A DNA stretch of 59,916 bases from an uncultured bacterium (GCA_903861045.1 CAIOST010000240.1:1-59916); one strand, 5' to 3'; counted from the stretch's first letter, positions 3,788-50,609 are shown. Made by a program: numbers and translations. Notes: a model not told the origin generated them from the sequence alone.

Positions 3788-3789
3788 GC

Positions 3790-4680: not shown

Positions 4681-4688
4681 GAGTTGCC

Positions 4689-7931: not shown

Positions 7932-7983
7932 CCGTCCTGCCGCACCGCTCACCACCACACCACTACCCGGAGTACTAGCCCCC

Positions 7984-9755: not shown

Positions 9756-10859
9756 ATGAAAACAATGTTCACGCAGCATAAAAATCGGCTACACCACCTG
9801 CAATACGTCATCCTGCTTAGTGCGCTCTTCAGCCTTACCCCCTTGCTGAACGCCAGCAACGTCGCCATCGCTTGGGATCCACCCACAAGCAACACAGATG
9901 GCAGCGCGCTGACCGATCTGGCCGGCTATCGGCTTTATCATGGCACAGCCAGCGGGGTCTACACCGAAAACAGCGCCGTTGCCAATGGCAGCACGCTAAC
10001 CCTCTCGAACCTACTATCCGGCGGCACCCACTACTTCGCGGTCACCGCGCTCAACAGCGCCGGGGCGGAAGGGGCGTATTCCGACGAACTCGCCTTGCGG
10101 ATCCCGCCGGGTATTATCCTGAGCACCGCGCTTCTGTCGGTCGAGGAGGGCTCTTCGGTGACCCTTCAAGTCCGCCTGGAGGCGCCCCCCAGCCAAGCCA
10201 CCACGGTTCAAGTGCACCGCGTATCAGGTGGCTGCCCCTATTTGGGCATCACCGGGGGCACGCGGCTGCTGTTTTCCGCCACGAACTGGTCCACGTATCA
10301 GCCGGTCACGCTGCGCGCGCTGCCAGATCCGGTTCGAGCAAAACGTACCGCGCTCTTCGACTTCACCGGCACGGACCTTACATCGGCCCAACTCGCCGCG
10401 TCAGCAAGTAACCCAACCGTAACCCCCATCGAGCTGATTGACAACCAGGATGCGGACGCCAATGGGCTGCCCGATACCTGGGAAATCACTCGCTTCGGCG
10501 GCATCAACCTGGTAGGCGCAGCCGCCCTTGATGATTCGGATCAGGATGGGCTCTCCAATATCCAGGAATACATTGCCGGCACAGATCCGACCGATCCCGC
10601 CAGCCGACTGCTGGTGGAAATCCAAACACGCGCTGGTCAGCCCGAAGTCCGCGTGCAAACGATCGCCGCCACTGGCTACGGCTATCTCGGCAAAACCCGC
10701 AGCTACACCCTGCAACAGTGTCCCGACCTAGTCGCCGGAATATGGTCCCCGGTGGCTGCTGCCACCGACATACCAGCCGATGGCCAGACGGTAACCTATG
10801 CCGACAATCTAATCACCGCTCCCACCAGCTACTACCGCGTCAACGCCCAGCTCCACTAG
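9756..10859 (+). CDS. secreted Fn3-domain protein with Ig/Calx-like domain, Asp-rich Ca-binding repeats and PVC-type C-terminal domain
   Basis: Signal peptide; VAIAWDPP...LAGYRLY...YFAVTALN (Fn3); DADANGLPDTWE and DSDQDGLSNIQEY..GTDP; ends LQQCPDL..W...YYRV. Confidence 0.75.
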   Translation: MKTMFTQHKNRLHHLQYVILLSALFSLTPLLNASNVAIAWDPPTSNTDGSALTDLAGYRLYHGTASGVYTENSAVANGSTLTLSNLLSGGTHYFAVTALNSAGAEGAYSDELALRIPPGIILSTALLSVEEGSSVTLQVRLEAPPSQATTVQVHRVSGGCPYLGITGGTRLLFSATNWSTYQPVTLRALPDPVRAKRTALFDFTGTDLTSAQLAASASNPTVTPIELIDNQDADANGLPDTWEITRFGGINLVGAAALDDSDQDGLSNIQEYIAGTDPTDPASRLLVEIQTRAGQPEVRVQTIAATGYGYLGKTRSYTLQQCPDLVAGIWSPVAAATDIPADGQTVTYADNLITAPTSYYRVNAQLH

Positions 10860-10901
10860 GCGTGGCCAGCTGCAACCGCAACACGCGCAACCTTCCCCAT
10901 C

Positions 10902-10936
10902 ACAAGGGCCGGAGCAATCCGGCCCTTGTTGTTTTT
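10902..10936 (+). terminator. intrinsic terminator
   Basis: ACAAGGGCCGGA-GCAA-TCCGGCCCTTGT followed by TGTTTTT, downstream of the Fn3 gene. Confidence 0.8.
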
Positions 10937-11051
10937 GGTACACTGACAGGCCGCACGTAGTGACGCCGTAAGGCGTTTGCTTCTTTGCGTTGGCGCGTTC
11001 CTGTGCGGCGGACACAGAGGCACGACCTCCAGTGCGCCAGATGCCAGAAAT

Positions 11052-11083
11052 GCACAAGGGCCGTATTACTCCGGCCCTTGTGC
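11052..11083 (-). terminator. terminator-like hairpin after VPDSG-CTERM gene
   Basis: GCACAAGGGCCG...CGGCCCTTGTGC 12-bp stem; near-identical to the hairpin at 10902. Confidence 0.65.
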
Positions 11084-11114
11084 GGACAGATCTAAGAACG
11101 CTGCGCTGACGCAA

Positions 11115-11645
11115 CTACCGCGCCATCTTCCTGCGGAGAGCAGCCAGACTCAGCATGCCGAAGCTCAGCAGCGCCAAGGTCATCCCGCCGTCTGGAACCG
11201 GTCTGCGGTCGAAAGATTGCGGGTCCGTATCTATATATTTCCACGAGGCAGCCGACTGCGGCTCGCCGAATGGTACGCTGATGTAAGCCCATCTACCGAT
11301 CAGCTCTGTACCACTCCAGGCCAAAAAGGCGATCTCGTTACCAGGGGCGACGGTCGGCGCAGTACCCGCAAAAGTATACTGCACCAGGAAGTCGCCGCTG
11401 TAGGAGTACCCGCTGGCCGTCGTGTATCTTGAATTCACAAGCTCGGACGTCCAGCCGGCTAGCGACACCGTTACGGGATCGCTGAAGACGGAACTCCCGG
11501 AAGTGATAAACACCTCGATCCGGTCCATGTTCGGCGTTTCATTGTCAATGAAGCTGTACGTCCAGGTAATAGCCCTCACAGAACCTGCCGAGAAAAGGCA
11601 GACCCCCATCGCCACAACCAGCATATTTCGCATGGATTTGTTCAT
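11115..11645 (-). CDS. VPDSG-CTERM sorting domain protein (exosortase substrate)
   Basis: Start MNKSMRN after AAGGA RBS; signal peptide; C-terminus VPDGGMTLALLSFGMLSLAALRRKMAR (motif, TM helix, basic tail). Confidence 0.88.
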   Translation of the reverse strand: MNKSMRNMLVVAMGVCLFSAGSVRAITWTYSFIDNETPNMDRIEVFITSGSSVFSDPVTVSLAGWTSELVNSRYTTASGYSYSGDFLVQYTFAGTAPTVAPGNEIAFLAWSGTELIGRWAYISVPFGEPQSAASWKYIDTDPQSFDRRPVPDGGMTLALLSFGMLSLAALRRKMAR

Positions 11646-11724
11646 GACACTTCCTTTCGTATTGCAGGCCAACTGCCATTGCCCGTTGCAGCCGGCGTGA
11701 TTGAACCTGCGCATAACCATGTAT

Positions 11725-11740
11725 AGCAATTGTCGTGCCG
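11725..11740 (-). promoter_or_regulatory. sigma-54 promoter
   Basis: Minus strand CGGCACGACAATTGCT = GGCACG-N4-TTGC, 80 bp upstream of the start codon. Confidence 0.8.
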
Positions 11741-11837
11741 GAACTAGACACCGACCAAACATGATTTGCACTACATTGCTGTGCAACATGTTGCGAGCTT
11801 TACCAGCGGCGGTAGCATTCTCCAAAATTCGTCGGAG

Positions 11838-11864
11838 GCTGGCAAACTGTAAAGAAGTCCGACG
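11838..11864 (-). promoter_or_regulatory. candidate PrsR enhancer (PEP-box-like)
   Basis: CGTCGGACTTCTTTACAGTTTGCCAGC; 23/27 identical to 50396-50422; ~100 bp upstream of the sigma-54 site. Confidence 0.7.
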
Positions 11865-12008
11865 TTTTTACTTCCTCGGCGCCAGCATCATCAGCGCAAT
11901 TGTCACAACGGCGCCGGCACAGAAGCATGGTCTATTCTTTTGCCATGATTTTTGACGAATGCGTCCTGTTTGCTCACAGGGGGCGCCTCAAGGGTTAGCA
12001 CCAACAAC

Positions 12009-12035
12009 AATCCTGAAAATCCTGTTAATCGTGTT
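12009..12035. repeat. 3 x 9-bp periodic repeat (AATCCTGNN)
   Basis: aatcctgaa aatcctgtt aatcgtgtt; same unit forms the arms of the palindrome at 27283-27350. Confidence 0.6.
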
Positions 12036-12062
12036 AACGTATTCTGCTACGCACCTACGGCC

Positions 12063-13127
12063 TCACCCCACCAGCGCCGCCGCGATGCGTTCGCCGGCGT
12101 GACCGTCCCACAGCGGCGGAATCGCGCCTCTGGGCCCCTGATTACCCAGCACCTTGCCGATCTCTTGTTCCATGCGCGCCGTGTCCGTGCCTACCAGCAC
12201 ATTGGTGCCAATTTCAATGGTAATAGGCCGTTCCGTGGTGGTGCGCATGGTCAAACACGGTACCCGCAGGTAGGTCGTCTCTTCCTGAATGCCGCCGGAA
12301 TCCGTAACCACCACCGCCGCATGGCTCTGCAACCACAAGAACTCCAGGTAGCCCAGCGGTTCGGTCAAAAAGAGTCCGCGGGCGGCCTCCTGCAAGCCGA
12401 ACTGCGCGATCTTCTGCCGCGTGCGCGGATGCACGGGGAAGATCACCGGCAGCGTCCGACTGGTCCGCGCCAAAGCCCGCACCAGCGCCTCCAACATATA
12501 CGGATCATCCACATTCGACGGCCGATGCAGGGTCACGAGCACAAACTCTGCCGGCAGGTTCGGGACGCTGGGCTCACGCGCCTGGGGCAACAAGCGGATC
12601 AACGTATCAATCATCACATTGCCGACCAGCCAGATCTTCTCCGGAGCCACCCCTTCTCGCAGCAGGTTCACGTCGCCGTCCACGGACGGTGTGAAGAGCA
12701 CGTTACTGATCTGATCCGTCAAGAGGCGGTTGATTTCTTCGGGCATGGCACGGTCAAACGAACGCAACCCGGCCTCGACATGGCCGACCGGGATCCCCAG
12801 CTTCGTGGCCACCACCGAGGCGGCTACCGTCGAATTCACATCGCCATACACCAGCACCATATCCGGTCTTTCAGCCAGCAAAACCGGTTCGAAGCGCGTC
12901 ATCACCTCGGCGGTCTGTTTGGCGTGCGATCCGGAGCCCACTTCCAGGTTGTGATCCGGCAGTGGCAGGCCCAGTTGATCAAAGAACGTGCCGGACATAT
13001 TCGCGTCATAATGCTGGCCGGTATGGACCAACACTTGACGGACCTCCAGACGTGCCCGCAGCGCCCGCAACACCGGTGCCGCCTTCATGAAATTAGGCCG
13101 CGCCCCTACCACATGCAATATGGTCAT
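12063..13127 (-). CDS. wecB: non-hydrolysing UDP-N-acetylglucosamine 2-epimerase (WecB/WbpI family)
   Basis: VGARPNFMK, HTGQHYD, HVEAGLRS, MPEEINR, TDSGGIQEE, TERP. Confidence 0.92.
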   Translation of the reverse strand: MTILHVVGARPNFMKAAPVLRALRARLEVRQVLVHTGQHYDANMSGTFFDQLGLPLPDHNLEVGSGSHAKQTAEVMTRFEPVLLAERPDMVLVYGDVNSTVAASVVATKLGIPVGHVEAGLRSFDRAMPEEINRLLTDQISNVLFTPSVDGDVNLLREGVAPEKIWLVGNVMIDTLIRLLPQAREPSVPNLPAEFVLVTLHRPSNVDDPYMLEALVRALARTSRTLPVIFPVHPRTRQKIAQFGLQEAARGLFLTEPLGYLEFLWLQSHAAVVVTDSGGIQEETTYLRVPCLTMRTTTERPITIEIGTNVLVGTDTARMEQEIGKVLGNQGPRGAIPPLWDGHAGERIAAALVG

Positions 13128-13330
13128 AGGAATCCTTTATGCTAATTACACCCCTGCCCCGAAAAAGAACCGCACATACAGATACGCCACACCTTCGCAC
13201 AGCACTTCCCGCACGCCTTCGCTATAGCGCCACCAATGGACGGGATCGTATTCGCGTTCGTCCATGGCCAGCACCCCAACGCGGACCGTGTTTCCCATGG
13301 CCTTCTGAAATCACATAACGAGCGTCTCCC

Positions 13331-15178
13331 TCACTCGAGACGCCTCAGGTTAGAAATGGGCATCGGGCTTTTGGCTGCTATGAACTCGAGAGCCCCGATG
13401 TCGGGAGCCGCATCGTTCAGGCGCGAGGTCAAGTCGTAATCTACAATGACGGGACTGACGAACACGCCAGCGTTGATGCACGGCGAACCGGCGGCCAAAT
13501 GCGCCTCCGCCAACGTAGTGGGATTGGAATACACCAACAAGGGCAAACCAAAGGATGAATTCTCTTCGTTAGGAAATCCGTCGCGCAGCATGGCCGCCTG
13601 CATGGCCGCAAGCGTCTTATAGTTCGAACCGCGATAGACGAACGACTGTCCGGAGTCCGTGGTTTTGAAGTACCGGTTGTTACTCAACCTGACACCGGCA
13701 TACGTCGTCTCATTTGAGTCGGCACCGACCAGAAGCATGTCGCCAGAGTTCGAAATCAGAAGGTTATTTCGTACCTCAAGCTGCGTGTTACTTCCGAAAA
13801 AGTGGAAACCATTGGCGCCGGGATAGCTGCCGTTCGCGATGGTATTATGAATAAAACGATTGCCATGGCACGCGGGGTTGACGCTGCCCGGACCGCCGTT
13901 CTTGCCGTCAGACTGCAATGCCGGGCCGTATACGTTCAACACCACATTGTTGTACACAACGTTGTCGTTGGCGCCGTCGCGCAACTGGACGGCAATCCCG
14001 CCGCCCACGTTATACCCCTTGATATCGTGAATGAAGTTGTGGCGGATCACGTTGCCTTTCGTGCCACTTCGAAAATAGACAGCATTCTGCGCGGGCCCAG
14101 ATAGTTCGTTATATTCGACGCAACCATGGACGGCGCCATAAGCGACCCCGCTAGCCCAAGCGCCCACCACGCCAACAAGGTCCCCACCACGCGCGTAGCA
14201 GCCATAGATACGATTGCTAACTACTTGCAAGCTCTGACACGTTCCCGCGCTGCCGGATTCGAAGTAGATCAGCGACCCGTATCCGTTACCGTCGGGGTCG
14301 TAGCAATCGCGCACAGTGCTCGCTCGCAGCACAAAGTTGCTTGATCGCATGACGTAAATGGCACCAGCCGCTCCGGAGGCGTCGTGAATGAACACTCGAT
14401 CCAGGACGACGAAGTCGCTCTCATAAACGTAGCAAATGGGATGCACGGCGTTACGCAGTCCGCTCTGTTTCATTTCGACATCGCGGATCGTGACATAGTC
14501 CTTCCGATAGATATAAACACACTTGGATCGCGCGGAACCCTCAACTCGCAATCCGGCGAGTGCGGGCGACTTCGGCGAGTAGATATACACCGTGGAGAAC
14601 CCAAGGCCATCCGCGTCGCCCCACGCCCACCGGTCAGCGGCGAGATTTCCCGCGATGTAGGGCGTCCACTGACCGGCGTACTCACCGATGAACTGATACC
14701 GCTCGTTCAGCCAAACCCCGCCTGGCTCCGGAATCTGGGGGTTCAACCCGGCGCTGGTGGTAAGATACCACTGGTTGCCAGCAGAAGATGCGTTCCAGCG
14801 GAACGGCTCGGCCGAGTAGTCGGCCGCGCCGTTGATGACGGGGGGTGCCCCCTCTCCATAAGATTGAATCGTCAAGGGGCGATTCGACGTCCCCCCTGCG
14901 CCAATCTGAAGTTCTTCGCGCCACTCGCATCCCCGGCGAAGATTGACGAAAACCACATCACCGGTTGCGATCATCTGTCCGATGGCTGTCCAGTTGATGT
15001 TAGAGAAGGCTCGGTAGGGGGCAGATAGCGTTCCATTGCCACTGCTTGACACCGACGCATCCACATACAATTGCTGTTCCTCTCCACGAGAGTATTCGGC
15101 ATGACCAACTGTCAAGGTTAGTACCATGAACCCCAGAGTTTGTGTTAGCCGAATACGCATGCATGTACAATTGTTCAT
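13331..15178 (-). CDS. secreted right-handed beta-helix protein with choice-of-anchor-Q-like C-terminus
   Basis: Signal peptide, YVDAS..GNGT..PY N-terminal motif, beta-helix repeats, LAAGSPCINAG...PDIGALE; ends SPMPISNLRRLE; start approximate. Confidence 0.75.
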   Translation of the reverse strand: MNNCTCMRIRLTQTLGFMVLTLTVGHAEYSRGEEQQLYVDASVSSSGNGTLSAPYRAFSNINWTAIGQMIATGDVVFVNLRRGCEWREELQIGAGGTSNRPLTIQSYGEGAPPVINGAADYSAEPFRWNASSAGNQWYLTTSAGLNPQIPEPGGVWLNERYQFIGEYAGQWTPYIAGNLAADRWAWGDADGLGFSTVYIYSPKSPALAGLRVEGSARSKCVYIYRKDYVTIRDVEMKQSGLRNAVHPICYVYESDFVVLDRVFIHDASGAAGAIYVMRSSNFVLRASTVRDCYDPDGNGYGSLIYFESGSAGTCQSLQVVSNRIYGCYARGGDLVGVVGAWASGVAYGAVHGCVEYNELSGPAQNAVYFRSGTKGNVIRHNFIHDIKGYNVGGGIAVQLRDGANDNVVYNNVVLNVYGPALQSDGKNGGPGSVNPACHGNRFIHNTIANGSYPGANGFHFFGSNTQLEVRNNLLISNSGDMLLVGADSNETTYAGVRLSNNRYFKTTDSGQSFVYRGSNYKTLAAMQAAMLRDGFPNEENSSFGLPLLVYSNPTTLAEAHLAAGSPCINAGVFVSPVIVDYDLTSRLNDAAPDIGALEFIAAKSPMPISNLRRLE

Positions 15179-15272
15179 GGATTTGCCCTCTTTTCGTGAC
15201 CGTACCGCGAAGATCCAAGAAAGAATGGCTCCAAAATGATAAAGGCCAACCACCCCGACACCTTCCGTGCCA

Positions 15273-16340
15273 CTAATTACGACACGCGCGCCACTTCATC
15301 CAACGCTGACCTATTGCTTGTGCGAGGTCGCCAACGCGCATCATCACAAGACTTAGCCGATTGCTACAAGCCTCATATTCGCCCACGTGTTCCATGGCCA
15401 AACCAGACATGCCAGCCTTGAATTTATCAACCGACTGCGTGACATCACCTCCGCGTCCGCCCAGATCGAGCCAACGGCACCCATGCTTTTGCATCCATTC
15501 CACCGTTTTCCATTTTGCCAGATAGGAGCTATTTACTCGCCGTCCTTCGCCGCCGGTGGCGGCCAACAAGCACAGGCCCGTATCGCCCAGCGCGGAAAAC
15601 ACCGCGGCGGACACGGGCAAGCCCGCAAACCGGCACACGACGAGTTGCATCTTCTGGTCGTCCGGCAAAAGCGCCTGCATACGGCGCAGTTCTTCCGGCT
15701 TCACGAACGCCGCGAAGTGTTTGCGGCCACGTAGTTCCTGATACAAATTGTCCAGGCTGCTGAACAACTCGTCGCCAGTGCCCTCCGCCACGTTAATTTG
15801 CGCATCTTCGGCCTGCCGCAAATGCTTGCGCCAATGCTTGTCAAGCTTCTTGCTTAACTCGTCGAGTGGCGGGGCAAGATCGAGGACGAACGTTGCATAT
15901 GGGCTACGGTTAGCGCGACGCACAAAATGCTCGTCTGCGAAAACTTTCTGCACCGGCACATCTCCCTCCCCATGAAAAACCCGTGGCAGGAGGCGCAGGA
16001 GGAACCCTCGGCGTTGAACGTATTCCTCCCGCAGTGCCCGCAGCACCTCGGCCAGGTTATGCGCTTCGGGGCATTCCTTCCGCCGCCGCCACAGCGGACC
16101 CCACCGCACATAAGCGATGCCACCGGGCAGGTACGGACAACGAAGCAACCGAATTTGCGCGGCACCAACAGGTTCAGAAGCATCCCACACGACCAGGTGA
16201 CTGAGTGCGGCTGAAGTCCAACGCGTCGCGCCATATGCCCAGGTCTGGTATAAGGAGGCGTCGTCGAACGCGCGCACGACTCCAGCCCAGGAATCCGGAG
16301 TCATCGAATCCACCGTTGTCCGATATGATCGCGCTGTCAT
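15273..16340 (-). CDS. FemAB/FemX-like GNAT aminoacyl- or acyltransferase
   Basis: YQTWAYG, YVRWGPLW, LDL...LDKHWRKHLRQA, WLDLGG, KFKAG. Confidence 0.8.
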   Translation of the reverse strand: MTARSYRTTVDSMTPDSWAGVVRAFDDASLYQTWAYGATRWTSAALSHLVVWDASEPVGAAQIRLLRCPYLPGGIAYVRWGPLWRRRKECPEAHNLAEVLRALREEYVQRRGFLLRLLPRVFHGEGDVPVQKVFADEHFVRRANRSPYATFVLDLAPPLDELSKKLDKHWRKHLRQAEDAQINVAEGTGDELFSSLDNLYQELRGRKHFAAFVKPEELRRMQALLPDDQKMQLVVCRFAGLPVSAAVFSALGDTGLCLLAATGGEGRRVNSSYLAKWKTVEWMQKHGCRWLDLGGRGGDVTQSVDKFKAGMSGLAMEHVGEYEACSNRLSLVMMRVGDLAQAIGQRWMKWRACRN

Positions 16341-17212
16341 GTCTTGTTACAGGGCTCCGTTGGGCACGGCGCAACGCACGTCCGAGTGATTCCGGCACAG
16401 ACCACACGGTGCAGTGCCCGTTTGATGGCAATCGCCGTCGGCAGCCATTGATACGCGCCGGCCAGTTTGAGTTGAAACTCAATGGCCCAGTCGGTCGGCT
16501 CCACATTGATACGTCCGACCGCAAAGGCCTGCAAGGGGTCGTAAACGACGTGAGGCAGGGTCGTAAAGAGTCGGCCATAACCCGCCGCACGCACAGCGCT
16601 GAGATGTTCAGGGGCGAAGGCGCCATACGGAAAGCTGAACATTTCTGAGCCGCCTTCCGCAATTGTCGCCAACCGCCGACGCGAATCTTCGAGTTCCCGA
16701 CGCACACCGGCGTCATCCAACGCGCAGAAGTTCGTATGGGTGACGCCATGGGAGCCCAGCGTGATCGCCGGGCCTGCCAACCGGCGCAGTTCGTCGATGC
16801 ACAAGACGCGATCGGCGTGCAGAGGATGGTGCGGATCATCGATCCAATCCGGCGTCCTTCCAGCGAAGTCCGTGGGCACGAACACGGTCGCGTGAATTCC
16901 CCGCTGTGCGAGTTCAGGGAATGCATTGCGCGCCGCGCTGGCGAGCGCATCGTCGAAAGTCACTGAAACATATTGCTTGCCGGCCTCCAGAGGCTGCCGC
17001 CAAGCAGCGGGAATTACTTCGGCTCGCTTTTGCAGTTCATTCATCTGCCGAACGAACCCGGCACGCGCCTCATCAGGGACGGCATGGTAGTAGAGAACGA
17101 TCCAGATTCCCGGCGTGGCGTGTCCAGACAGGACGCTGTGCAGCCGCCGCAGCAATGTCCAGCACAGCCAAAAAACTGCGGCGATCACCAGCTTGAGCAA
17201 ACGGGAAGTCAT
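16337..17212 (-). CDS. polysaccharide deacetylase (CE4/NodB)
   Basis: LYYHAV, VTFDDA, GSHGVTH, FSFPYG. Confidence 0.85.
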   Translation of the reverse strand: MTSRLLKLVIAAVFWLCWTLLRRLHSVLSGHATPGIWIVLYYHAVPDEARAGFVRQMNELQKRAEVIPAAWRQPLEAGKQYVSVTFDDALASAARNAFPELAQRGIHATVFVPTDFAGRTPDWIDDPHHPLHADRVLCIDELRRLAGPAITLGSHGVTHTNFCALDDAGVRRELEDSRRRLATIAEGGSEMFSFPYGAFAPEHLSAVRAAGYGRLFTTLPHVVYDPLQAFAVGRINVEPTDWAIEFQLKLAGAYQWLPTAIAIKRALHRVVCAGITRTCVAPCPTEPCNKT

Positions 17213-17227
17213 GTCGGTCTCAATCCG

Positions 17228-18205: not shown

Positions 18206-18228
18206 GGCATAGCTCCCATTATCTCTCA

Positions 18229-20378: not shown

Positions 20379-21882
20379 CGCTTCTATCGCCAGCTATCCG
20401 GCGCATCGCTCGCCAGACCACTTCCTTCTCGGCCGGTGCCAGAAAGCGGCTGCGATACAAATAAGCCAGCGCGCCAGCCCCCATCAGGCCGACGGACAGA
20501 ACGAGCATCCAGGCTGGCTGCCGCTCCAACGCAAGGGCCAGCGCAAGCGTCCCGCCGCCGAAGGCCACGCAGATCATGATCCGTTTCCATTCTAGTGGGA
20601 AAGGATAGCTCCGCCGGCCTTCGTGCACGACCCACAGCGCACGCACACCGCTAACCAGGTTGCGTGTCAGAACCGCCCCCGTCACGCCCAGAAAGGGAAT
20701 AACGGCAATATTTAGGCCTATGCAGATCACCATAAAGGTTGTCACAAACCCAGCCAGAGCCCGCGTGCGTTGGGCTGCGGTGAGCAGCGCCTCGCCCACG
20801 TAGAAAACTCCCGTGAACGCCACCGCCGGTAGCAACAGCATCATGATCCGAAAGGCATCGGCGTAGTTCGACGGCGCGATTAGCGGCAGCATGAACTTCC
20901 CGGCCACCACCAAGCCCAGCGCTGCCGCCATAAAAACAAGTAGCAGATAGGTCAGAATCCGGCCGACGGCCCGCTGGCCCTCTGCTTCGTGGATGTGCCC
21001 AAAGACGAAAGGCTCATACGCTATCTGGAAAGGCGACACTACCAGAATGTAGATCACCATCGCGAGCTTATTGCCTAAGGAATAGAGTGCAACGTCCTCC
21101 ATGGAACCCACGTAGCCAAGGATGTACAGTGTCGAAACTTCTGTGATCAAAGAGCCGGACATAGACAGAATCAACGGAAAGCCGAACCAGACTAACTGCT
21201 GAGTCGCTTCGCGCGATATCCGCAAACCTGTGCCAGGCAACAAAAGTCCTGCTAACACCGTCGCTACCAGCCCGTTCGCTGCCAGATTACTGATCAGGAC
21301 ACCCTTGACACCGGCGCTCAGCATAATCACCGCCGCCGCCGTGATGACGATCTGTAGTAAGACACAGGCCAACGTCGCAGCAATGTACTTCAATCCCTGA
21401 TTTGTGGCCCGATAGTGCGAGATTAAGACGAAGAAGATGGATCCGCTCAGCGCCGCAGCGCACGCCAGAAAAACATACACCGCTGCATCGGCGATGTGCA
21501 GCATGGCGGCAAACAACGGGCCCAACGCCAAAACGGCCAAGCCGGTTACCAGTGCACCGGAAACCAAATTTACCAGAACAGCCGACGCCAGCAGCGTCCC
21601 GGACTGTCCGCGATCCGCATAATCCCCGGCAAACCGCAGAATGGCAGTGCGCAGACCGAGATGCATGACGACGAAGATAATCTCCATCGTCGCCTGCATC
21701 GTGGAAAGCAGTCCAAATTCGCAGACACTCAGGTAATGCGTGTAGAGAGGTATCAGCAGGAATGCGCTAGCCCGAACTAAGATAACGCCCACACCGAAAA
21801 TCAGCACGCTTTTTCCGAACGACTTGACGTGGTTGCGTGCCGTACGGAAATCTGGCACTGTGGTACATGCTGGGTTGATCAT
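20365..21882 (-). CDS. wzx: Wzx-type oligosaccharide flippase
   Basis: FLLIPLYTHYLS..EFG, FGFPLI, VALYSLG; 12-14 TMs; start could be slightly downstream. Confidence 0.8.
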   Translation of the reverse strand: MINPACTTVPDFRTARNHVKSFGKSVLIFGVGVILVRASAFLLIPLYTHYLSVCEFGLLSTMQATMEIIFVVMHLGLRTAILRFAGDYADRGQSGTLLASAVLVNLVSGALVTGLAVLALGPLFAAMLHIADAAVYVFLACAAALSGSIFFVLISHYRATNQGLKYIAATLACVLLQIVITAAAVIMLSAGVKGVLISNLAANGLVATVLAGLLLPGTGLRISREATQQLVWFGFPLILSMSGSLITEVSTLYILGYVGSMEDVALYSLGNKLAMVIYILVVSPFQIAYEPFVFGHIHEAEGQRAVGRILTYLLLVFMAAALGLVVAGKFMLPLIAPSNYADAFRIMMLLLPAVAFTGVFYVGEALLTAAQRTRALAGFVTTFMVICIGLNIAVIPFLGVTGAVLTRNLVSGVRALWVVHEGRRSYPFPLEWKRIMICVAFGGGTLALALALERQPAWMLVLSVGLMGAGALAYLYRSRFLAPAEKEVVWRAMRRIAGDRSDDRN

Positions 21883-22010
21883 GGGGGGCGCGGAACCGGG
21901 ACAGCATAGCCGAACAAACTGCTGTTGAGCGCGTCGTATGGGTCATAACCAGACCAGTCCTGCTGGCGACAATAGTCCAGCAGCGCTTGCGTGATCTGGG
22001 TAACGTTCAT
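21879..22010 (-). pseudogene. 43-aa remnant: N-terminus of a GYDPYD-motif protein seen in EPS loci
   Basis: MNVTQITQALLDYCRQQDWSGYDPYDALNSSLFGYAVPVPRPP*; absent from ORF track; stop overlaps wzx start (ATGA). Confidence 0.6.
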
Positions 22011-22029
22011 GGTTAAGGCTTGGCGACAC

Positions 22030-23172
22030 TCAATGCGTAAGGGCCACAATCTGTTCGGTCAAGCGGTTCAGGGTCGTCAGGGTCGTCAGGGGGACGCCCT
22101 CCGCCAGCTTCCGACACTCGACCTTGATTTTCGTGGCCACATCGCCCAGGCTTTGTAGCAAGACCAGCCGTCCGGTCTCCGCCAAATGCCGGTCCACAGC
22201 GCCCATTTTGCCCCGGAAGATGCTGTAGACCGGCACCCCCAGGGCAGCGGCTTCGCGATTCATGGTGCCGCCACCGCTGACCACCAGGTCGGCATGCCAG
22301 AGCAGATTCAGACCCTCAATGGCGCTCTTGGGAATCACAGTTTTATGGTGTGTAAAGAAATGCGGCCACTTGGCCTGGAGGTCGTCGCTCTGCCGGTTGT
22401 TGCGGGGCAACAACACGATGCGCACGCCGGGGGCCGCATGCAGCTTCTGCATCACGGCGTCCAGCAGCAACTCACTCTCCGGGTTGTGATAATGGGCTTC
22501 CGTGGCGGGCGGCCGCACGACCGCTAGCAGGGCCGCGCCGCGCACCCCCAATTCATCGAGGATCGCCGAATCAGGCCGAAAATCATGCACGTACACGTCT
22601 TCCTTGATCCCCGGATACTTGAGAATGCGACGTTTGTCGCCCTCGACGGCCGCGTCGGGAATCACATCCGGCAAGATGCGCCAGGTGGGATGCATCAGCG
22701 GCGGGAATCGGGCGTATTCGTAGTCCGCGATCAGCACCGAGGGAATTCCCAGGATGTTGGACAGTATGAACTGCGCACGTGAGCCGTGCGAGACGGCTAG
22801 CATCGGCCGACGCGTGCGAATCGCACCATAGAGCTGAAAGGCCCGGTAGAAGAGCCCGAGCACTTTCATGAGGCGATTGCGGCCGTGATGCCGGCCAACT
22901 TGGGTGCAGGCCACCCCCAAGCGCCTGGCCAGATCGCAGACCTGAAAGGCATCGCGCGCCGTCACAATCACCTCGAAGCCGCGCGCACGCAGTTCGCGGA
23001 TGATCGGCCGGAAAAAAGGCACATGCGGCGTGTTGTCGAGGTCGATCCAGATGGTCTTGCGCGGCGCCCGTGCCGGCGCAGATGGCCCGGCCAGACTGGC
23101 TTTCGAACATCTTTGTCCGCCGCCAGGGACTACACGAGTTCTGGCACTTTTGTTAGCGTTTTGAGAAATCAT
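22030..23172 (-). CDS. DUF354 family GT-B-like protein
   Basis: IWIDLDNTPHVPFF, YPGIKE, RPPATEAHY, SGGGTMNREAAALG. Confidence 0.82.
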   Translation of the reverse strand: MISQNANKSARTRVVPGGGQRCSKASLAGPSAPARAPRKTIWIDLDNTPHVPFFRPIIRELRARGFEVIVTARDAFQVCDLARRLGVACTQVGRHHGRNRLMKVLGLFYRAFQLYGAIRTRRPMLAVSHGSRAQFILSNILGIPSVLIADYEYARFPPLMHPTWRILPDVIPDAAVEGDKRRILKYPGIKEDVYVHDFRPDSAILDELGVRGAALLAVVRPPATEAHYHNPESELLLDAVMQKLHAAPGVRIVLLPRNNRQSDDLQAKWPHFFTHHKTVIPKSAIEGLNLLWHADLVVSGGGTMNREAAALGVPVYSIFRGKMGAVDRHLAETGRLVLLQSLGDVATKIKVECRKLAEGVPLTTLTTLNRLTEQIVALTH

Positions 23173-23200
23173 AGTCCCACCAGGCAGGTCCTTACGCCCT

Positions 23201-25288
23201 TCAAGGTATCGTGACAGATCGCAAATGCGTGGGCGGATTGGGGGGGCGCGTCGCATAGAGATAGGTCGCGCCGATGGCCGGCTTAACGCCCGACCAAGGG
23301 AACCACACGCCTGCCCCATCGGCCCAGGTTTTGGCCGCCGTTACACGAAGCTGCGTGGCAGAGTTCACGGAGGCTACGATCGCGGTCCCGCCCTCAGCCA
23401 GGGCAATCACATCGCCAGGCAGAAACACCCGGCGGGCGTCCAGCCCGGATACGACGGGCACCAGATTCAGGATGGTAGCGGCATTGCCTGCCCCGGCAGC
23501 CCGGAAGGGGAAGGCACCGGCATTGATGCACGGCGAGGTGGGCTGGAGCTGCAGATTACTTAGCAACCAACTATCCTGCACGGAAACCAGCAGTGGATTC
23601 GTAGCCAGACAACTGATACCGAGCCAGCCATTGGCGCCCGTGGTGATATCAGATGCCGTATAGGCCGTTGTCTTTTGCTGAATCACCACCCCGCTGCGAC
23701 TGGAGGAAAACAGGGAGTTGATATAGTGGACCTGATAGGCCAGGCCGGCGTAATCACTCTCAATCAGGACGCTATTGCCGGTATCCGCATGACTGAGGCA
23801 GTTAATGAGATACTGGTGGTAGTTACCAGCAGGAATGGCACCGGTCACGGACGATAACTGCCCATTCCATAAGAAACCGTACCCATAATCGGCCCCCTTC
23901 CCGCTGGTACAATTTATCCAGAAATTGGTGCCCCGCGTCCCCTGGTAGACATGAAAATTGCCATCCCCCCGCGCAGCAATGGTTGTTTTCCAGCCGATGC
24001 AGCCGATGAAGTACACATCATGTGCCCCTGAATTGAGATCCAGATTATCCTTGTAGTTATTGTAACTGAGGCAATTCCGGACGGTAATGCCATACATATC
24101 ATCGCGGCTTTTGTAATCGCCATCCCGCGACAAATCCACCCCCTGCTCCCCGTTATCATGCGTATCGCAGTTTAGGACCCAGATATCTCGACCACCGCCC
24201 ACGTGAATGCCATCCGCGCCCGTAGGCGCATCACTGGCCACACAATTGCGGATATAACTATTCTCGGCATATCCCATATATATATTGGCAGCCGTGTCGT
24301 CTTGCAGATGGGTGACATGCGCAAATAGAGAATCCAGGACCACGCCCCCGATGTAGGTCGGGGTGCCCTTATCCAGCGATTGCACCATCACATTGGCACG
24401 TGCGGAATTGTAGATTTCCATGTTTTTAAGCTGGCTACCGTTGAAGCCGGCGTCTTTCACGGTAATGCCGTTAAAACTTGAATTTTGCACCAGAATGCCA
24501 TTCGTGATCGCACCATCGAAGACGATACAGTCCACCGACTCGATGGCAATCATCCCGTAATAGGAGGGCACCACCACGTTGGTAGCATCGATGACAACCT
24601 GCCCGGTTCCCCAAGAGAGGTCGCGCTGAATCGTAATGGGTTGCGGCACGGTTCCATTGGCATAGAACGCGGATGATATCCAGATCCGACCCAGGGCCGG
24701 CGCCCCCAAACGGGTGCCGCTCTTGAGTTTAAAGATCGTCCCGGCTTTCACTTTGGCGGTATTGAGCTGCACCGCCCCTGTGCCATAGCTCGTGGACTGC
24801 CAATCGGAATTCGCCACATTACGCGTGCCCGGCAGCGTCTTCCAGGCCGTTGCCTGGGTGGTCCCTGCCGCGGCATCGTTGCCATAATCAAAATCAATAT
24901 AGTAGGTGACCGCACTCGTACCGGGCGGCAAAGATTCTTGCCATGCCAGTTCGACGGAATTGGAGCTTTCATACAAAGCGGTATTATAGGCACGCACCGC
25001 AAAGTAATAGGTCTTACCAGCCGTCAGACTGGTTACGCTGCTAGTGGCCGTGTTACCGACATTCGTGATCGAGGTATAGACGCCGCTATTCGTACCCCAA
25101 ACAATTTTGTAACCGGCCAAGTCGGTTAGGGCCGTGCCGTCTGTGTTATTGGTCGGCGGGTCCCAGGCCAGCCGAACCTCAGCGGCTTGCGACAGCCCGC
25201 CTCCAACACCCGCCAGCATGGCCAGGCTAAGCCAAGCGGCCCTGCGTACGCCGAGCAACCCCTGCGCAGTAAACAACGTAGTATTCAT
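23201..25288 (-). CDS. secreted Fn3 + right-handed beta-helix protein
   Basis: GGAGG RBS, signal peptide, Fn3 (VRLAWDPP...YYFAVRAYN), YYIDFDYGND..GT..AWKT, beta-helix, LQPTSPCINAG; ends PPNPPTHLRSVTIP. Confidence 0.8.
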   Translation of the reverse strand: MNTTLFTAQGLLGVRRAAWLSLAMLAGVGGGLSQAAEVRLAWDPPTNNTDGTALTDLAGYKIVWGTNSGVYTSITNVGNTATSSVTSLTAGKTYYFAVRAYNTALYESSNSVELAWQESLPPGTSAVTYYIDFDYGNDAAAGTTQATAWKTLPGTRNVANSDWQSTSYGTGAVQLNTAKVKAGTIFKLKSGTRLGAPALGRIWISSAFYANGTVPQPITIQRDLSWGTGQVVIDATNVVVPSYYGMIAIESVDCIVFDGAITNGILVQNSSFNGITVKDAGFNGSQLKNMEIYNSARANVMVQSLDKGTPTYIGGVVLDSLFAHVTHLQDDTAANIYMGYAENSYIRNCVASDAPTGADGIHVGGGRDIWVLNCDTHDNGEQGVDLSRDGDYKSRDDMYGITVRNCLSYNNYKDNLDLNSGAHDVYFIGCIGWKTTIAARGDGNFHVYQGTRGTNFWINCTSGKGADYGYGFLWNGQLSSVTGAIPAGNYHQYLINCLSHADTGNSVLIESDYAGLAYQVHYINSLFSSSRSGVVIQQKTTAYTASDITTGANGWLGISCLATNPLLVSVQDSWLLSNLQLQPTSPCINAGAFPFRAAGAGNAATILNLVPVVSGLDARRVFLPGDVIALAEGGTAIVASVNSATQLRVTAAKTWADGAGVWFPWSGVKPAIGATYLYATRPPNPPTHLRSVTIP

Positions 25289-25373
25289 AAACACCTCCTC
25301 TTGCTTTCGTTTTAACGTAGCGAACCGGCCTGTCCAACACCGACCCCATGCCCCCACCCACGATCGCTATGCC

Positions 25374-27005
25374 CTATCCGGCACGCACGGCGTCCTTCAA
25401 CCGTTTGATATGGCCGCGCCCCATGCCTTTGACCTCGCAGCCCAATTCAAGGTATTGGCTGATCATCGCGTCGGTCAGGATCCCGTGGCAATCAATCACC
25501 GCCAGCGGGCCGCCGGCCCAGCGTACAATCTCGGCCGGGGCGAGCTGCAGATATTCCTGGTGTCGCACCGCGAAGATGACCGCCTCCACCCCTTGCAGCG
25601 CGTGCGCCAGATCCTTCTCCACGCGGATATGGGTCAGTTCCTTCTGGTTGCGGAAGAAGAGGGCCCGCGAATGGCCCGGTTCGGGATACTCGTCTTGATT
25701 TTCGAGCTCGTGCCAGTGATCCACATACGGATCATGTACGTGGATTTCTGCGCCCATTTCGGTCAGTTTGCGCGCGACCATTTCCGAGCCGCTATAGCGG
25801 GTGTCGCCGACATCCTCCCGGTAGCTGGCCCCACACAGGAGAATCTTCGCGCCGGCGATATATTTACTCATGTTTCGCAGCGCGTCGCGGGTAAGTTCCG
25901 CGGCATGCAGCGCCCGCGTGTCGTTGATATCAATGGCTAGGGGGGTGATTTTGAAGATCTGGTCTTCAAAACCGAGGATGTGCTTGTAGGCCCAGCAGCC
26001 GAGCCCCCCGTCCTTCGGCAGGCAGTATCCGCCAATGCCCGGCCCGGGGAAGATCATGTTGCTATGCGTGGGGCGCATTTTGATGGCATTTATGACCTTA
26101 ATCAGGTCCACCCCGTTGCGTTCGGCAAAGAGGCTCCACTCATCCATGTACGCAAGGATCGTGGCGCGATAGGAGTTTTCCACAATCTTGGTGGTTTCCG
26201 ACTCGATCGGGCGATCCATGACCGTCAGCGGGAACTCCTCGGTATTCAGCACCTCCTTTAGAAATTTGACCACGCGTTCCCGCGCGGCCGGCGTGCAACC
26301 GGCACAGACGCGCCAGAAATCCCGGATCGAGGAGACGTAATGACGTCCCGGCATGACGCGTTCGAAGCTGTGCGCGAGGAGCGGCACCGATGCGAGGCCG
26401 CGCTTGGCAAAGGTCTTCTTAAGGATCGGCATGGCCACGAACTCCGTGGTGCCGGGGGCCACGGTGGTTTCGATCAAGACCAGGCATTCCGGCGTCATGC
26501 GCTCGCCGATCGTGCGCAGCGTGGCCTCCAGCGCTGCCATTTCTGCCTCACCTTCACTCACATTGCCCAGTTCATGCTTGGTGTAGTCACACTGCACGTC
26601 CACGACTACACAATCAGCCAGTTTCAGGCAGTCACTGTTATACGTGGCGATCAGCGTCTGCTTATCTCGCACGCAGCGTGCGATCATGGCATCCACCTCG
26701 GGGTCCTCGGCCTTCACCGGCGACTCCCCCCGGCTTAACAGCGGAATTTTCCAGTAACTGCGTGGACTGGGGCGTTGGCACCCGATCACGAACTTGCCTG
26801 GCTGCCCGGTCTGCTTGTCCACAGTGTCGGCGATAATCGCTGCCATAACAGCGCCGACAAAGCCGACGCCCATGACCACGACAATCTCCTTGCCTTCCCT
26901 GCGCGCCTGCGCCACGGCCTGCTCAACGCGTTGCAACTCCGCGCCATACGCCTCCTTGGCCGGAATCGCAAACTTCTCCCCCATCGGTCCGACTGAGTAA
27001 TCCAT
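25374..27005 (-). CDS. nucleotide-sugar dehydrogenase (UDP-glucose/GDP-mannose dehydrogenase family)
   Basis: GVGFVG, ETTVAPGTT, ERVMPG, KIVENSYR, GPGIGGYCLPKD, DTRYS; start moved to MDYSVGP. Confidence 0.88.
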   Translation of the reverse strand: MDYSVGPMGEKFAIPAKEAYGAELQRVEQAVAQARREGKEIVVVMGVGFVGAVMAAIIADTVDKQTGQPGKFVIGCQRPSPRSYWKIPLLSRGESPVKAEDPEVDAMIARCVRDKQTLIATYNSDCLKLADCVVVDVQCDYTKHELGNVSEGEAEMAALEATLRTIGERMTPECLVLIETTVAPGTTEFVAMPILKKTFAKRGLASVPLLAHSFERVMPGRHYVSSIRDFWRVCAGCTPAARERVVKFLKEVLNTEEFPLTVMDRPIESETTKIVENSYRATILAYMDEWSLFAERNGVDLIKVINAIKMRPTHSNMIFPGPGIGGYCLPKDGGLGCWAYKHILGFEDQIFKITPLAIDINDTRALHAAELTRDALRNMSKYIAGAKILLCGASYREDVGDTRYSGSEMVARKLTEMGAEIHVHDPYVDHWHELENQDEYPEPGHSRALFFRNQKELTHIRVEKDLAHALQGVEAVIFAVRHQEYLQLAPAEIVRWAGGPLAVIDCHGILTDAMISQYLELGCEVKGMGRGHIKRLKDAVRAG

Positions 27006-27163
27006 CCTACCCCCCTTGTTGTTATTGGTTACCATGGACTGAGAAAGCGACGTCGTCTGCCATTTTGGAAAATTAGCGGCCCGCGCCTGGCACATGGCAC
27101 GGTTCGCATACGGGATGTACCGCCTCGCGCACGGGACAAGCCCGCCGATGTGGACGGCGGCGT

Positions 27164-27462
27164 GAAAGTGTAGTGAAAGTGGCCTTTTGAAAAGGCGCCA
27201 TGATGCGCTCGTATAATGCGGCGAATGGGACGGATGGCGCAAAATACACGCATTACTAGGAGCGGTGAAGCCTTCTTTTTGGGACAGAATTAACAGGATT
27301 TTGCAGGATGGTGGCGTGAGCCATCCTGTTTAAATCTTGTTAATCCTGTCTGAAATTGGCTGCGTTATGCGCGATAGGGGGGTGATAGGAGATACAAGCT
27401 TTTGGCAGGGCCACCGCGTAGAAGATCCTACCATTTCAAACCGCCACTTTCACTACACTTTC
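27164..27462. repeat. 299-bp segment bounded by 32-bp inverted repeats (candidate inverton or MITE)
   Basis: 27164-27195 GAAAGTGTAGTGAAAGTGGCcttttgaaaagg versus reverse complement of 27431-27462; outer 20 bp perfect, 29/32 overall. Confidence 0.85.
27283..27350. repeat. imperfect palindrome built from 9-bp periodic units (REP-like)
   Basis: gacagaattaacaggattttgcaggatgg ... ccatcctgtttaaatcttgttaatcctgtc. Confidence 0.8.
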
Positions 27463-27550
27463 GCTTTGGCGTCCACTGCCGATTACTTCTTCCCAAAGCA
27501 AACCCCAACCTAAACCCACCCACGGTGGCAGGGCCTGTAAGCCCTTCCCT

Positions 27551-29335
27551 TCAAGGTGCCGTAAGAGAACGCAAATGAGTCGGCGCATGGGGGGGAGGGG
27601 CCCGCGTAACCGTGGAATAGGTCGCGCCGATGGCAGGCTTAGTACCAGACCACGGGAACCATACGCCACCACCATCGGCCCATGTTTTAGCGGCCGATAA
27701 ACTAATCTGCGTGGCAGAGTTCACGGAAGCCACGATCGCGGTCCCAGCCTCGGCCATGGCAATCACATCGCCAGGCAGAAAGACCCGGCGGGCATCAAGC
27801 CCGGACACGACGGGCACCAGATTCATAATGGTAGCGGCATTCCCCGCCCCGGCCGCCCGAAAGGGGAACGCACCGCCATTGAGGCAGGGGGAAGTGGGCT
27901 GTAGCTGAAGATTACTAAGCAACCAACTATCCTGCACGGAGACAAACAGAGGATCCGTAGAAAGACAACTGACGCCGAGCCAGCCATTGGCGCCAGATTT
28001 GATATCGGCCGCGGTATAAGCCGTAGTTTTCTGCTGGATCACCACACCACTGCGACTAGATGAAAACAGGGAGTTGATATAGTGGACCTGATACGCTAGG
28101 CCGGCGTAATCACTCTCAATGAGCACGCTATTGCCTGTATCCGCATGGCTGATGCAGTTAATGAGATACTGGTGGTAGTTTCCCGGGGGAATGGCACCGG
28201 TTACGGACGACAACTGACCATTCCACAAGAAACCGTACCCGTAATCGGCACCCTTCGCGCTGGTACAATTTATCCAGAAATTGGTGCCCCGCGTCCCTTG
28301 GTAGATGTGGAAATTGCCATCACCCCGCGCGGTAATGGTCGTTTTCCAGGCGATGCAGCCGATGAAGTACACATCATGCACCCCGGAATTGAGATCCAGA
28401 TTATCCTTGTAGTTGTTGTAGCCGATGCAATTCCGGACGGTTATGCCATACATATCATCCCGCGCTTTGTAATCACCATCCCGCGACAAATCGATACCCT
28501 GCTCCCCGTTATCATGCGTGATGCAGTTTACGATCCAGATATTCCGGCCGCCGCCGACATGAATGCCATCTGCACCGGTAGGCGCATCCGTGGCCAGGCA
28601 ATTGCGGATATAACTGTTTTCCGCATATCCCAGATAAATATTGCCAGACGTATCATCTTGCGTACGCGTGACATGCGCAAATAGGGTATCCAGCACCACG
28701 CCCCCGATGTAGGTTGGGGTGCCCTTATCCAGCGACTGCACCATTACATTGGCGCGTGATGAATTATAGATTTCCAGATTTTTAAGCTGGCTACCGTTAA
28801 AGCCTGCGTCTTTCAAGGTAATCCCGTTGAAACTCGAGTTTTTCACCAGAACACCATTCGTAACCGCACCATCGAAGACGATGCAGTCAATCGATTCGAT
28901 CGCAATCATGCCGTAATACGAAGGGATCACCACGTTGGCAGCATCCAGAACAACCTGTCCCGTGCCCCAAGACAGATCGCGTTGAATCGTGATGGGGTGC
29001 GCCGCGGTACCGTTGGCATAGAATGCGGATGATATCCAGAGCCGCCCCAAGGAAGGGGCCCCCATACGGGTCCCGCTCTTGATTTTGAAGGTCGTGCCGG
29101 CCGTCACTTTGACGGTATTCCGCACGACAACCGATGCGCCATAGCTGGAAGACTGCCAATCGGAATTCGCCACATTGCGCGTGCCCGGCAGCGTCTTCCA
29201 CGCCGTCTCCTTGGTGGTTCCAGCCGCCGCATCGTTGCCGTTGTCAAAATCCACATAATAGGTGGCAGCCATGACCGCCTGCCCTATCATGCCCAACCCT
29301 ACCATATGTATGGCCATCCATCGTGCTGTTTTCAT
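27551..29335 (-). CDS. secreted right-handed beta-helix protein (close paralog of 23201-25288, without Fn3)
   Basis: GGAGG RBS, signal peptide, long identical stretches shared with the paralog; ends PPPHAPTHLRSLTAP. Confidence 0.8.
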   Translation of the reverse strand: MKTARWMAIHMVGLGMIGQAVMAATYYVDFDNGNDAAAGTTKETAWKTLPGTRNVANSDWQSSSYGASVVVRNTVKVTAGTTFKIKSGTRMGAPSLGRLWISSAFYANGTAAHPITIQRDLSWGTGQVVLDAANVVIPSYYGMIAIESIDCIVFDGAVTNGVLVKNSSFNGITLKDAGFNGSQLKNLEIYNSSRANVMVQSLDKGTPTYIGGVVLDTLFAHVTRTQDDTSGNIYLGYAENSYIRNCLATDAPTGADGIHVGGGRNIWIVNCITHDNGEQGIDLSRDGDYKARDDMYGITVRNCIGYNNYKDNLDLNSGVHDVYFIGCIAWKTTITARGDGNFHIYQGTRGTNFWINCTSAKGADYGYGFLWNGQLSSVTGAIPPGNYHQYLINCISHADTGNSVLIESDYAGLAYQVHYINSLFSSSRSGVVIQQKTTAYTAADIKSGANGWLGVSCLSTDPLFVSVQDSWLLSNLQLQPTSPCLNGGAFPFRAAGAGNAATIMNLVPVVSGLDARRVFLPGDVIAMAEAGTAIVASVNSATQISLSAAKTWADGGGVWFPWSGTKPAIGATYSTVTRAPPPHAPTHLRSLTAP

Positions 29336-50548: not shown

Positions 50549-50609
50549 CTGTAAATAGGCGGGGAAAACAGTAATGGTGTAACGAACAGGTCATCAAGGA
50601 GCCAAGACC

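Follow-up and report, generated by a model that had tools for sequence, protein, structure and literature searches.

The exopolysaccharide (EPS) locus on a 59,916-nucleotide contig of an uncultured bacterium (GCA_903861045.1 CAIOST010000240.1:1-59916; contig C240, here called the window) encodes four secreted proteins that carry a fibronectin type III (Fn3) domain without its first strand, strand A, or a short C-terminal tail resembling that strand, or both. The A-less domain is referred to below as a socket and the tail as a plug. The source genome (4.7 Mb, 89.6% complete) is that of a Kiritimatiellia/Lentisphaerales-like bacterium, its closest relative among the fetched loci being labelled uncultured Lentisphaerales bacterium.

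The first of the four, P0001 (9756..10859, plus strand; Pfam fn3 and TSP3_bac in the translation), is a socket-only secreted protein. Its signal peptide (9756-9854, plus strand) ends in ..LLNA and is followed by the A-less Fn3, a Calx-like middle region, a bacterial TSP3 repeat and a C-terminal beta domain; no plug tail, lipobox or membrane anchor was found in the translation, and an ortholog is present in a same-genus genome (L067). P0002 (23201..25288, minus strand) has both elements, in the order signal peptide, A-less Fn3, beta-helix enzyme, small C-terminal domain and tail, with its true start at M24 and a signal peptide ending in ..SQA. The socket of P0001 (residues 34-117; 9855..10106, plus strand) begins at strand B directly past the cleavage site, and that of P0002 (residues 59-145; 24923..25183, minus strand) runs from strand B to strand G, the Trp-bearing strand being entered 1-3 residues past the signal peptide in both proteins.

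The 84-position Pfam fn3 profile (PF00041, cut-off 25) is matched by P0001 from position 12 to 81 with 20.6 bits, under the cut-off, and by P0002 from position 14 to 72 with 25.0 bits; the corresponding scores in a six-frame scan were 21.7 and 27.5 bits. Both window sockets thus lack strand A (profile positions 1-11) of a complete seven-strand Fn3. Across the whole genome the six-frame scan gave 14 matches, 11 of which begin at profile position 1-3 and open with a [PA]-x-[PA]-P-T-[GNK]-[LVMF]-x-A-T strand; the three that start at position 12-14, namely P0001, P0002 and a third protein on contig C361, have no such strand. In phmmer searches against the PDB, residues 2-3 of the socket query align with strand B of the titin, contactin and neogenin Fn3 domains. 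The third socket protein has 342 residues in the arrangement Fn3-HYR-PKD and carries a tail-like P-G-K-P-D-K-V-R-V-V stretch, which is the true C-terminus in its same-genus ortholog (L001). AlphaFold2 (AF2) models the Fn3 of this ortholog with strands B, C, C', E, F and G only, at a predicted local distance difference test (pLDDT) of 88-98, and the model superposes on solved Fn3 domains (VIA Z 10-11; root-mean-square deviation 1.7-2.3 Å over 79-82 residues); with the nuclear magnetic resonance entries 2doc, 1x5k and 2ede, the aligned part begins only at chain residue 31, 34 and 24, respectively. The Fn3 part of the AF2 model of P0002 was uninformative (pLDDT ~40, one alignment row there). The first-pass annotation of this DNA had described two secreted proteins whose Fn3 begins at the Trp strand right after the signal peptide, and this holds, with Pfam starts at 12 and 14 and with no strand A of its own in the predicted domain.

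The plug-only protein P0003 (13331..15178, minus strand; Pfam Beta_helix, 62.7 bits) is a secreted right-handed beta-helix enzyme, the start of which is probably M26 or M32 of the open reading frame (ORF) 13331-15253 and not 15253 as listed. Its last 12 residues (13334..13369, minus strand) have the form P-x-P-x-x-N-L-R-R-L-E. P0004 (27551..29335, minus strand), also plug-only, has a signal peptide and no Fn3; its enzyme and that of P0002 are paralogous, with 81% identity over the beta-helix part. The plugs of P0002 (23204..23248) and P0004 (27554..27598, both on the minus strand) comprise the last 15 residues of each, according to the translations and alignment A3. A stop codon lies directly past each of the three window tails, which are 12-15 residues long, and the orphan motifs that had been quoted for three secreted beta-helix proteins, together with their division into plug-only (13331, 27551) and socket-plus-plug (23201) forms, agree with the translations. 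A hidden continuation of the genes past the tails was rejected: the six-frame PF00041 scan, reading through stops, gave no Fn3 remainder downstream, and the gaps behind P0002 and P0003 are too short for one. The tails share a P-x-x-P-x-[NH]-L-R-x form with the opening strand of the 11 complete Fn3 domains of the genome, a purely sequence-level likeness judged by inspection and by the Pfam profile offsets. No Pfam or NCBIfam model covers the tails, Pfam gave no dockerin match on them, and they contain no transmembrane segment, hydrophobic helix or basic cluster of a PEP-CTERM-type signal. Two tail patterns match 16 and 7 of the 5785 genome ORFs of at least 200 residues, the three window proteins being in both sets and the only ones with convincing tails. 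All strong tails and two of the three sockets of the 4.7-Mb genome fall within 20 kb.

The beta-helix fold of the tailed proteins is supported by PF13229 matches (for P0004 with 23.5 bits, under the curated cut-off of 25.9) and by a pLDDT above 90 for the beta-helix of P0002. Foldseek searches with the latter retrieved the pectate lyase Pel9A (E 4e-9), GH136 lacto-N-biosidases, PL6 lyases, AlgG/AlgE epimerases and phage depolymerases, the solved enzymes sharing only 8-15% sequence identity. Since the modelled bodies resemble lyases, hydrolases and epimerases, they are predicted to be polysaccharide-active enzymes, which fits their place in an EPS locus.

Residues 577-624 of P0003, just before its tail, correspond to the choice-of-anchor Q domain (NCBIfam choice_anch_Q NF041518, 27.4 bits, cut-off 25); the same profile has no match in P0002 or P0004. 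Choice-of-anchor domains are presented as surface-protein domains with one of several alternative C-terminal anchors (bioRxiv 10.1101/2023.03.06.531300). P0003 belongs to a different beta-helix family from P0004 and has a single homologue, P0025 (53% identity). For P0004, 18 homologues were found and 14 fetched (39-93% identity), and the tail is at the extreme C-terminus, behind a variable linker, in 10 of these 14; of the others, one is cut off by the record, one ends in a dockerin and two have no tail. In alignment A3 (13 sequences) one Pro is invariant, and behind it come x-x-[LMF]-x-[IVL] and then 1-4 residues to the stop. In the homologue P0010 the enzyme is separated from the C-terminus by a complete Fn3 and a LamG domain, yet the tail is again found at the very end. 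Two Omnitrophota homologues, P0016 of the P0004 family and P0025 of the P0003 family, have a dockerin (PF00404) in the tail position. Because homologues carry dockerins at this site and the choice-of-anchor Q domain precedes it in P0003, the tail position corresponds to an anchor position.

Tailed enzymes and sockets are also neighbours in other genomes. Geomonas oryzae, G. edaphica and two metagenome contigs have a gene for a signal peptide and A-less Fn3 immediately upstream of a tailed enzyme, the socket gene of the cultured G. oryzae S43 lying at L003 9647-10960; the same-genus locus L001 has a socket-HYR-PKD-plug protein two genes from the P0004 ortholog; and in L037, two genes on from an enzyme homologue, a 121-residue protein consists of signal peptide, A-less Fn3 and tail. 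The Geomonas, L001 and L037 cases were reached via the enzyme and not via the socket, and the homologue gene contexts cover none of P0007, P0009 and P0012-P0015. The Fn3 domains of P0002 and the C361 protein share 82% identity, and P0002, given also its likeness to P0004, looks like the signal peptide and Fn3 of a C361-type protein joined to a P0004 copy; the join keeps the socket N-terminal and the plug C-terminal. Searches of 61 genomes of the order recovered the enzyme family and the socket in the same two alone, the source genome (G000) and G003, which belong to one genus; three further genomes of that genus (77-89% complete) gave neither. Absences in searches with the socket hidden Markov model are soft, since that model missed the divergent socket of L037.

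Three side observations concern these loci. The gene order of L001 (701-5317) is enzyme, UDP-sugar dehydrogenase, Fn3-HYR-PKD protein; compared with it, the third gene of the window segment 23201-29425 retains the signal peptide and Fn3 and has its body replaced by an enzyme copy, which suggests a recent domain swap that preserved both termini. The 7.4-kb metagenome contig L039 (1100-5676) encodes four complete secreted beta-helix enzymes in tandem, all of which have a separate signal peptide and the C-terminus ..GAYEY..-T-T-P-P-x-A-P-T-G-L-x-V-[RN]-stop, and a fifth that runs on. Geomonas oryzae (G001 C11:546704-550771; L068-L070) has a cluster of three more proteins with an Fn3 beginning at strand B right past a signal peptide or membrane segment, one of them having cytoplasmic N-terminal GspE-N-like repeats before the membrane segment.

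A division between exported and lipid-anchored proteins was found among small proteins. A small socket-plus-plug query gave 77 matches, of which 36 shorter than 165 residues were read by eye and 23 aligned (A6); three of the 36 were left out as shortened or unclear, and several pairs are near-duplicates. The single-Fn3 proteins with a plain signal peptide have a Pro-rich strand tail starting a few residues past strand G in 15 of 16 cases (P0182 being the exception), and the single-Fn3 lipoproteins, with a Gly/Ser linker, have no plug-like tail in 15 of 17 (14 end at strand G, and P0224 has another extension). In the Fn3 fold, the end of strand G and the start of strand A lie at opposite poles. 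A tail directly past strand G, placed as strand A of the next tandem domain would be, should therefore be unable to reach the A slot of its own domain, as judged from the Fn3 topology. In the tandem arrays of P0100, P0103, P0089, P0147 and P0175, the first repeat past the signal peptide is A-less, whereas in the repeats further on a Pro-rich strand precedes strand B.

Starting from the socket, 79 loci were collected, and five of them (L102, L103, L113, L118 and L124) have convincing tailed secreted proteins near the socket, which is on a lipoprotein in L102, L103 and L118. A looser tail pattern was uninformative in the GC-rich source genome (219 of 14170 ORFs), and a regular expression for signal-peptide-adjacent sockets was too strict, matched one locus and was set aside. 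In L103 (3076-4167 and 10329-13096) and L118 (9848-10240 and 14576-16556), lipoproteins have as their sole or final domain an A-less Fn3 that stops right past strand G, and for each of them two secreted proteins ending P-S-P-P-x-N-L-x-[IV]-x-stop are encoded within 4-9 kb. Such loci are candidates for a combination of anchor and cargo in Nitrospirota-type metagenome-assembled genomes.

Complex prediction was carried out with the P0002 socket (18 alignment rows) and the last 105 residues of P0004 (12 rows). The interface score ipSAE (interaction prediction score from aligned errors) was 0.36, 0.32 and 0.36, with 0.00 in all three controls, and was graded as weak support; the runs agree in at least 76% of contacts, with a partner pLDDT of at least 61. 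In the calibration, 58 of 80 solved complexes passed the mark, as did 2 of 110 mismatched pairs; only 7 of the 80 solved complexes passed with an ipSAE of 0.60 or below, a range that includes both passing mismatches. Because the alignments for the prediction were self-made, these counts hold only roughly. The pairing of Fn3 and tail that had been put forward as a check obtained a weak pass, for the P0002 socket and the P0004 C-terminus, and not a view of the peptide in the A-strand groove.

Here the tails are read, with a probability put somewhat above even, as a donor-strand docking tag that completes A-less Fn3 domains in trans and so tethers or chains EPS-modifying enzymes. The tails would be free copies of Fn3 strand A, and after Sec export a tail would be laid beside strand B of an A-less socket on another protein, the two chains rebuilding a complete Fn3 by donor-strand complementation. 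Both partners of such a process are found here, a beta-sandwich without an edge strand and, by sequence likeness, a protein with a free strand that matches the missing one and is left disordered in the monomer models. P0003 and P0004, as putative polysaccharide-active enzymes, would be plug-only cargo; P0002 and the C361 Fn3-HYR-PKD protein, with socket and plug, would be docked and offer a new socket; and P0001 would be the socket-only base, with TSP3 among the domains that fix it in the matrix. The outcome would be a non-covalent tethering or chaining of EPS-modifying enzymes, a working equivalent of the dockerin-cohesin pair. The anatomy of the proteins, the conservation of the tail, the gene linkage and the exchange for a dockerin are observed; we infer the binding of tail to socket, the occupancy of the strand-A slot, and the order and site of assembly. 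The donor A-strand role given to the tails in the first-pass annotation is partly supported, by their terminal conservation, the dockerin replacement, the linkage and fusion of genes, the small-protein split, the phyletic match and the weak complex pass, and keeps its conditional form for the seating in the A slot. Its description of the protein at 9756-10859 as an anchor with a socket only stands for the socket without a plug and not for a lipid or membrane anchor.

Extended beyond this genome, the same reading is given slightly less than an even chance. It would be a split-Fn3 system across phyla, in which lipid-anchored or matrix-bound A-less sockets receive C-terminal strand-A plugs of 10-15 residues on unrelated secreted enzymes, and in which dual proteins may build non-covalent chains mimicking tandem Fn3 arrays; its users would be diderms (Kiritimatiellia, Geomonas, Nitrospirota and Bdellovibrionales), and it would be a minimal analogue of cohesin-dockerin.

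Several observations weigh against donor-strand docking. The Fn3 subfamily of the socket is very large, with 13638 representatives at E<=1e-3 that include numerous giant tandem arrays, and strand A is missing generally in it, including internal Fn3 copies past TSP3 repeats (P0098) and, in many Gammaproteobacteria, a C-terminal Fn3 directly past another Ig-like domain. As the A-less state is general and occurs in many proteins without a nearby plug, the missing strand alone is no proof of a need for a donor, and AF2 folds strands B-G confidently alone. No convincing tailed ORF was found in the fetched flanks of 74 of the 79 socket loci, and the strict tail pattern is not enriched at them (10 of 2598 ORFs, compared with 34 of 14170 in the source genome and 9 of 1105 at enzyme-seeded loci; Fisher p 0.13), the enzyme-seeded loci being no clean control because real tails are among them. 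Tailed enzymes also occur on the socket-less contigs L029, L039, L050 and L059 (2.3-7.4 kb long). Among the small lipoproteins, P0178 and P0247 have a tail and P0215 is ambiguous, and some tails match strand A poorly (the Geomonas P-S-A-P-V-L-L form, P0184 and P0188). No lipoprotein socket or cell anchor was found in the source genome at its 89.6% completeness, and for P0001, which has no lipid or membrane anchor, the word anchor can mean only a socket without a plug. The phyletic match covers one genus and counts as one event. The complex prediction gave a score without interface geometry, and, by the predictor's own guidance, a pass at an ipSAE of 0.36 is false in the majority of cases, except where the pairing was already probable.

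The alternative that survives best, although considered unlikely, is that a receptor other than Fn3 recognises the tail as a C-terminal signal for sorting or anchoring, the likeness of the tail to strand A being incidental. An outer-membrane or EPS-export component (e.g., the BBP2_2 barrel at 7726-9237) or the polysaccharide itself could be such a receptor. A signal of this kind would be expected where the tail lies, at the extreme C-terminus past a choice-of-anchor domain and in the place of a dockerin in homologues, and any alternative-anchor model equally predicts that exported proteins have the tail and lipoproteins do not. Most socket loci have no tailed neighbours, and at least 15 other secreted proteins of the genome have a P-x-G-T-V-h-x-h-R tag, so short strand tags may be a general sorting device here. 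It would, however, leave unexplained why the tag matches strand A of a fused or adjacent A-less fold and why the socket and the tailed enzyme share the same 2 of 61 genomes. The tails also lack the transmembrane segment and the basic cluster of known sorting signals, and they are found in distant diderm phyla, which makes a single lineage-specific machine unlikely.

Less probable still, the tails could be inert remnants of a lost Fn3 or a Pro-rich end cap, the A-less Fn3 a self-sufficient six-strand domain, and the linkage a clustering of surface proteins in EPS loci. The full Fn3 directly past the enzyme in P0010 makes the loss of such a domain plausible, but the tail reappears at the end of that same protein, past further domains. 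This explanation also agrees with the great abundance of A-less Fn3 domains, with their confident folding in isolation and with the lack of a significant enrichment of the tail pattern; a remnant would not be expected to stay conserved and strictly terminal across phyla at 39-48% identity, to recur on unrelated enzymes (P0003; L103, L118, L124 and L039) or to track the split between signal peptide and lipoprotein. The remaining alternative, that the tail fills the Fn3 of its own chain in dual proteins (a circular permutation with inserted cargo) and is a leftover in plug-only enzymes, is improbable: socket and tail do share one chain in P0002, the C361/L001 protein, P0145 and the small single-Fn3 proteins, but in single-domain proteins the tail begins a few residues past strand G and thus, by inference, at the pole opposite to the start of A, P0003, P0004 and 10 homologues retain the tail although they have no Fn3, strand A and tail are both missing from lipoprotein sockets, and AF2 monomers of mature P0002 and of the L001 socket-HYR-PKD-plug protein left the tails undocked and disordered (pLDDT below 40, and below 50 throughout residues 642-660 of P0002) next to confident neighbouring domains.

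Donor-strand docking as proposed for the tails has close parallels in pili. In chaperone-usher pili (Pap/Fim, Caf1), an Ig-like domain without an edge strand receives a donor from another subunit, socket-only, plug-only and dual subunits exist, and the non-covalent chains are very stable. Their missing strand is G, the donor is an N-terminal extension and the cargo is pilin, whereas here the domain is Fn3, the missing strand A, the donor C-terminal and the cargo an enzyme. These pili need a periplasmic chaperone and an usher; neither these nor the processing protease of donor-strand systems is among the Pfam families of the scanned window ORFs, and no dedicated search was made for them. Type V pili of Bacteroidota (FimA/Mfa1) have a C-terminal donor strand and lipoprotein forms at the base; their subunits are lipoprotein precursors with a pilin fold, in which a protease cuts the protein's own N-terminal strand and so opens the groove. 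In contrast, the socket groove described here would be open upon signal-peptide cleavage, and the domain is an Fn3. Archaeal cannulae are reportedly newly described chaperone-free donor-strand fibres. Donor-strand assembly outside classical pili is also described for the Pam pili of bacteria of the candidate phyla radiation, for which an Fn3-containing RbmA-like protein was proposed as terminating anchor (PMC13278184); the accessible part of that article describes filaments of dedicated pilins with truncated Ig-like C-terminal domains, with no split Fn3 or enzyme cargo.

The cohesin-dockerin system resembles the proposed one in that a small C-terminal module on varied secreted polysaccharide enzymes docks on a beta-sandwich receptor of a scaffold or anchor, and in homologues from both enzyme families the exact tail position is taken by a type I dockerin. 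The dockerin is a folded, calcium-binding module of ~60 residues that binds the surface of a complete cohesin, whereas a strand of 10-15 residues would here join the fold of the receptor. PEP-CTERM and VPDSG-CTERM signals are likewise C-terminal tags on secreted proteins of EPS loci, but they consist of a motif, a transmembrane helix and a basic cluster and are cleaved by exosortase, and the tails have no hydrophobic helix. A full-text literature search, with supplementary files outside its reach, found no description of a split Fn3 or of a strand-A docking tag. The principle of donor-strand complementation and the logic of dockerin and cohesin are already known; a split Fn3 used in this way was not found in that literature.

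If the tails dock, this would explain how polysaccharide-modifying enzymes are held at the surface or in the matrix in bacteria without sortases, dockerins or exosortase tags. Fn3, among the commonest extracellular folds, would then join the short list of donor-strand-assembled domains, and thousands of hypothetical small Fn3 proteins would obtain an annotation rule, with a lipoprotein socket as anchor and a socket with a tail as chain unit. The pair, with a domain of 85 residues, would also be a very small natural peptide/domain pair for protein tethering.

The surrounding EPS locus, as delimited by a Pfam scan of the window ORFs, is a single exosortase-type locus that spans 3.8-50.2 kb of the window (~46 kb). 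It includes the exosortase EpsH (3790..4677, plus strand; Pfam Exosortase_EpsH, E 1e-41), with a seven-transmembrane histidine kinase and a sigma-54 regulator upstream (315-3784), the BBP2_2 barrel, and a protein with a classical exosortase-type sorting signal, VPDSG-CTERM (11115..11825, minus strand; Pfam PF18205, 28.2 bits). The locus also encodes Wzy-type polymerases, flippases, glycosyltransferases, deacetylases and a UDP-sugar dehydrogenase, as well as a GNVR chain-length protein, a priming sugar transferase and a Poly_export protein. The VPDSG-CTERM signal is thus used in this locus too, though not on the beta-helix enzymes, and the earlier statement that assembly proceeds without exosortase tails applies to the plug and socket proteins and not to the locus as a whole. 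The GC (guanine plus cytosine) content is 0.54-0.61 in the EPS locus (window 8000-50000) compared with 0.62-0.65 in the flanks (1-8000 and 50000-59916), which, together with the presence of the enzyme family in only 2 of 61 genomes of the order, fits a horizontal acquisition of the locus.

A second C-terminal motif, P-x-G-T-V-h-x-h-[R/K/W]-stop, is found outside the window in at least 15 of the 9505 ORFs of the source genome with at least 150 residues (examples in G000 are C97:12263-14557, C102:6147-8729, C170:420-9680, C237:310-2433, C243:415-2550 and C255:7297-9495). No Pfam or NCBIfam model covers this motif. It is sharper than the tail motif and follows unrelated domains (Gly_rich_2, G8, PKD and choice-of-anchor Q), and it may be another strand-type sorting or docking tag.

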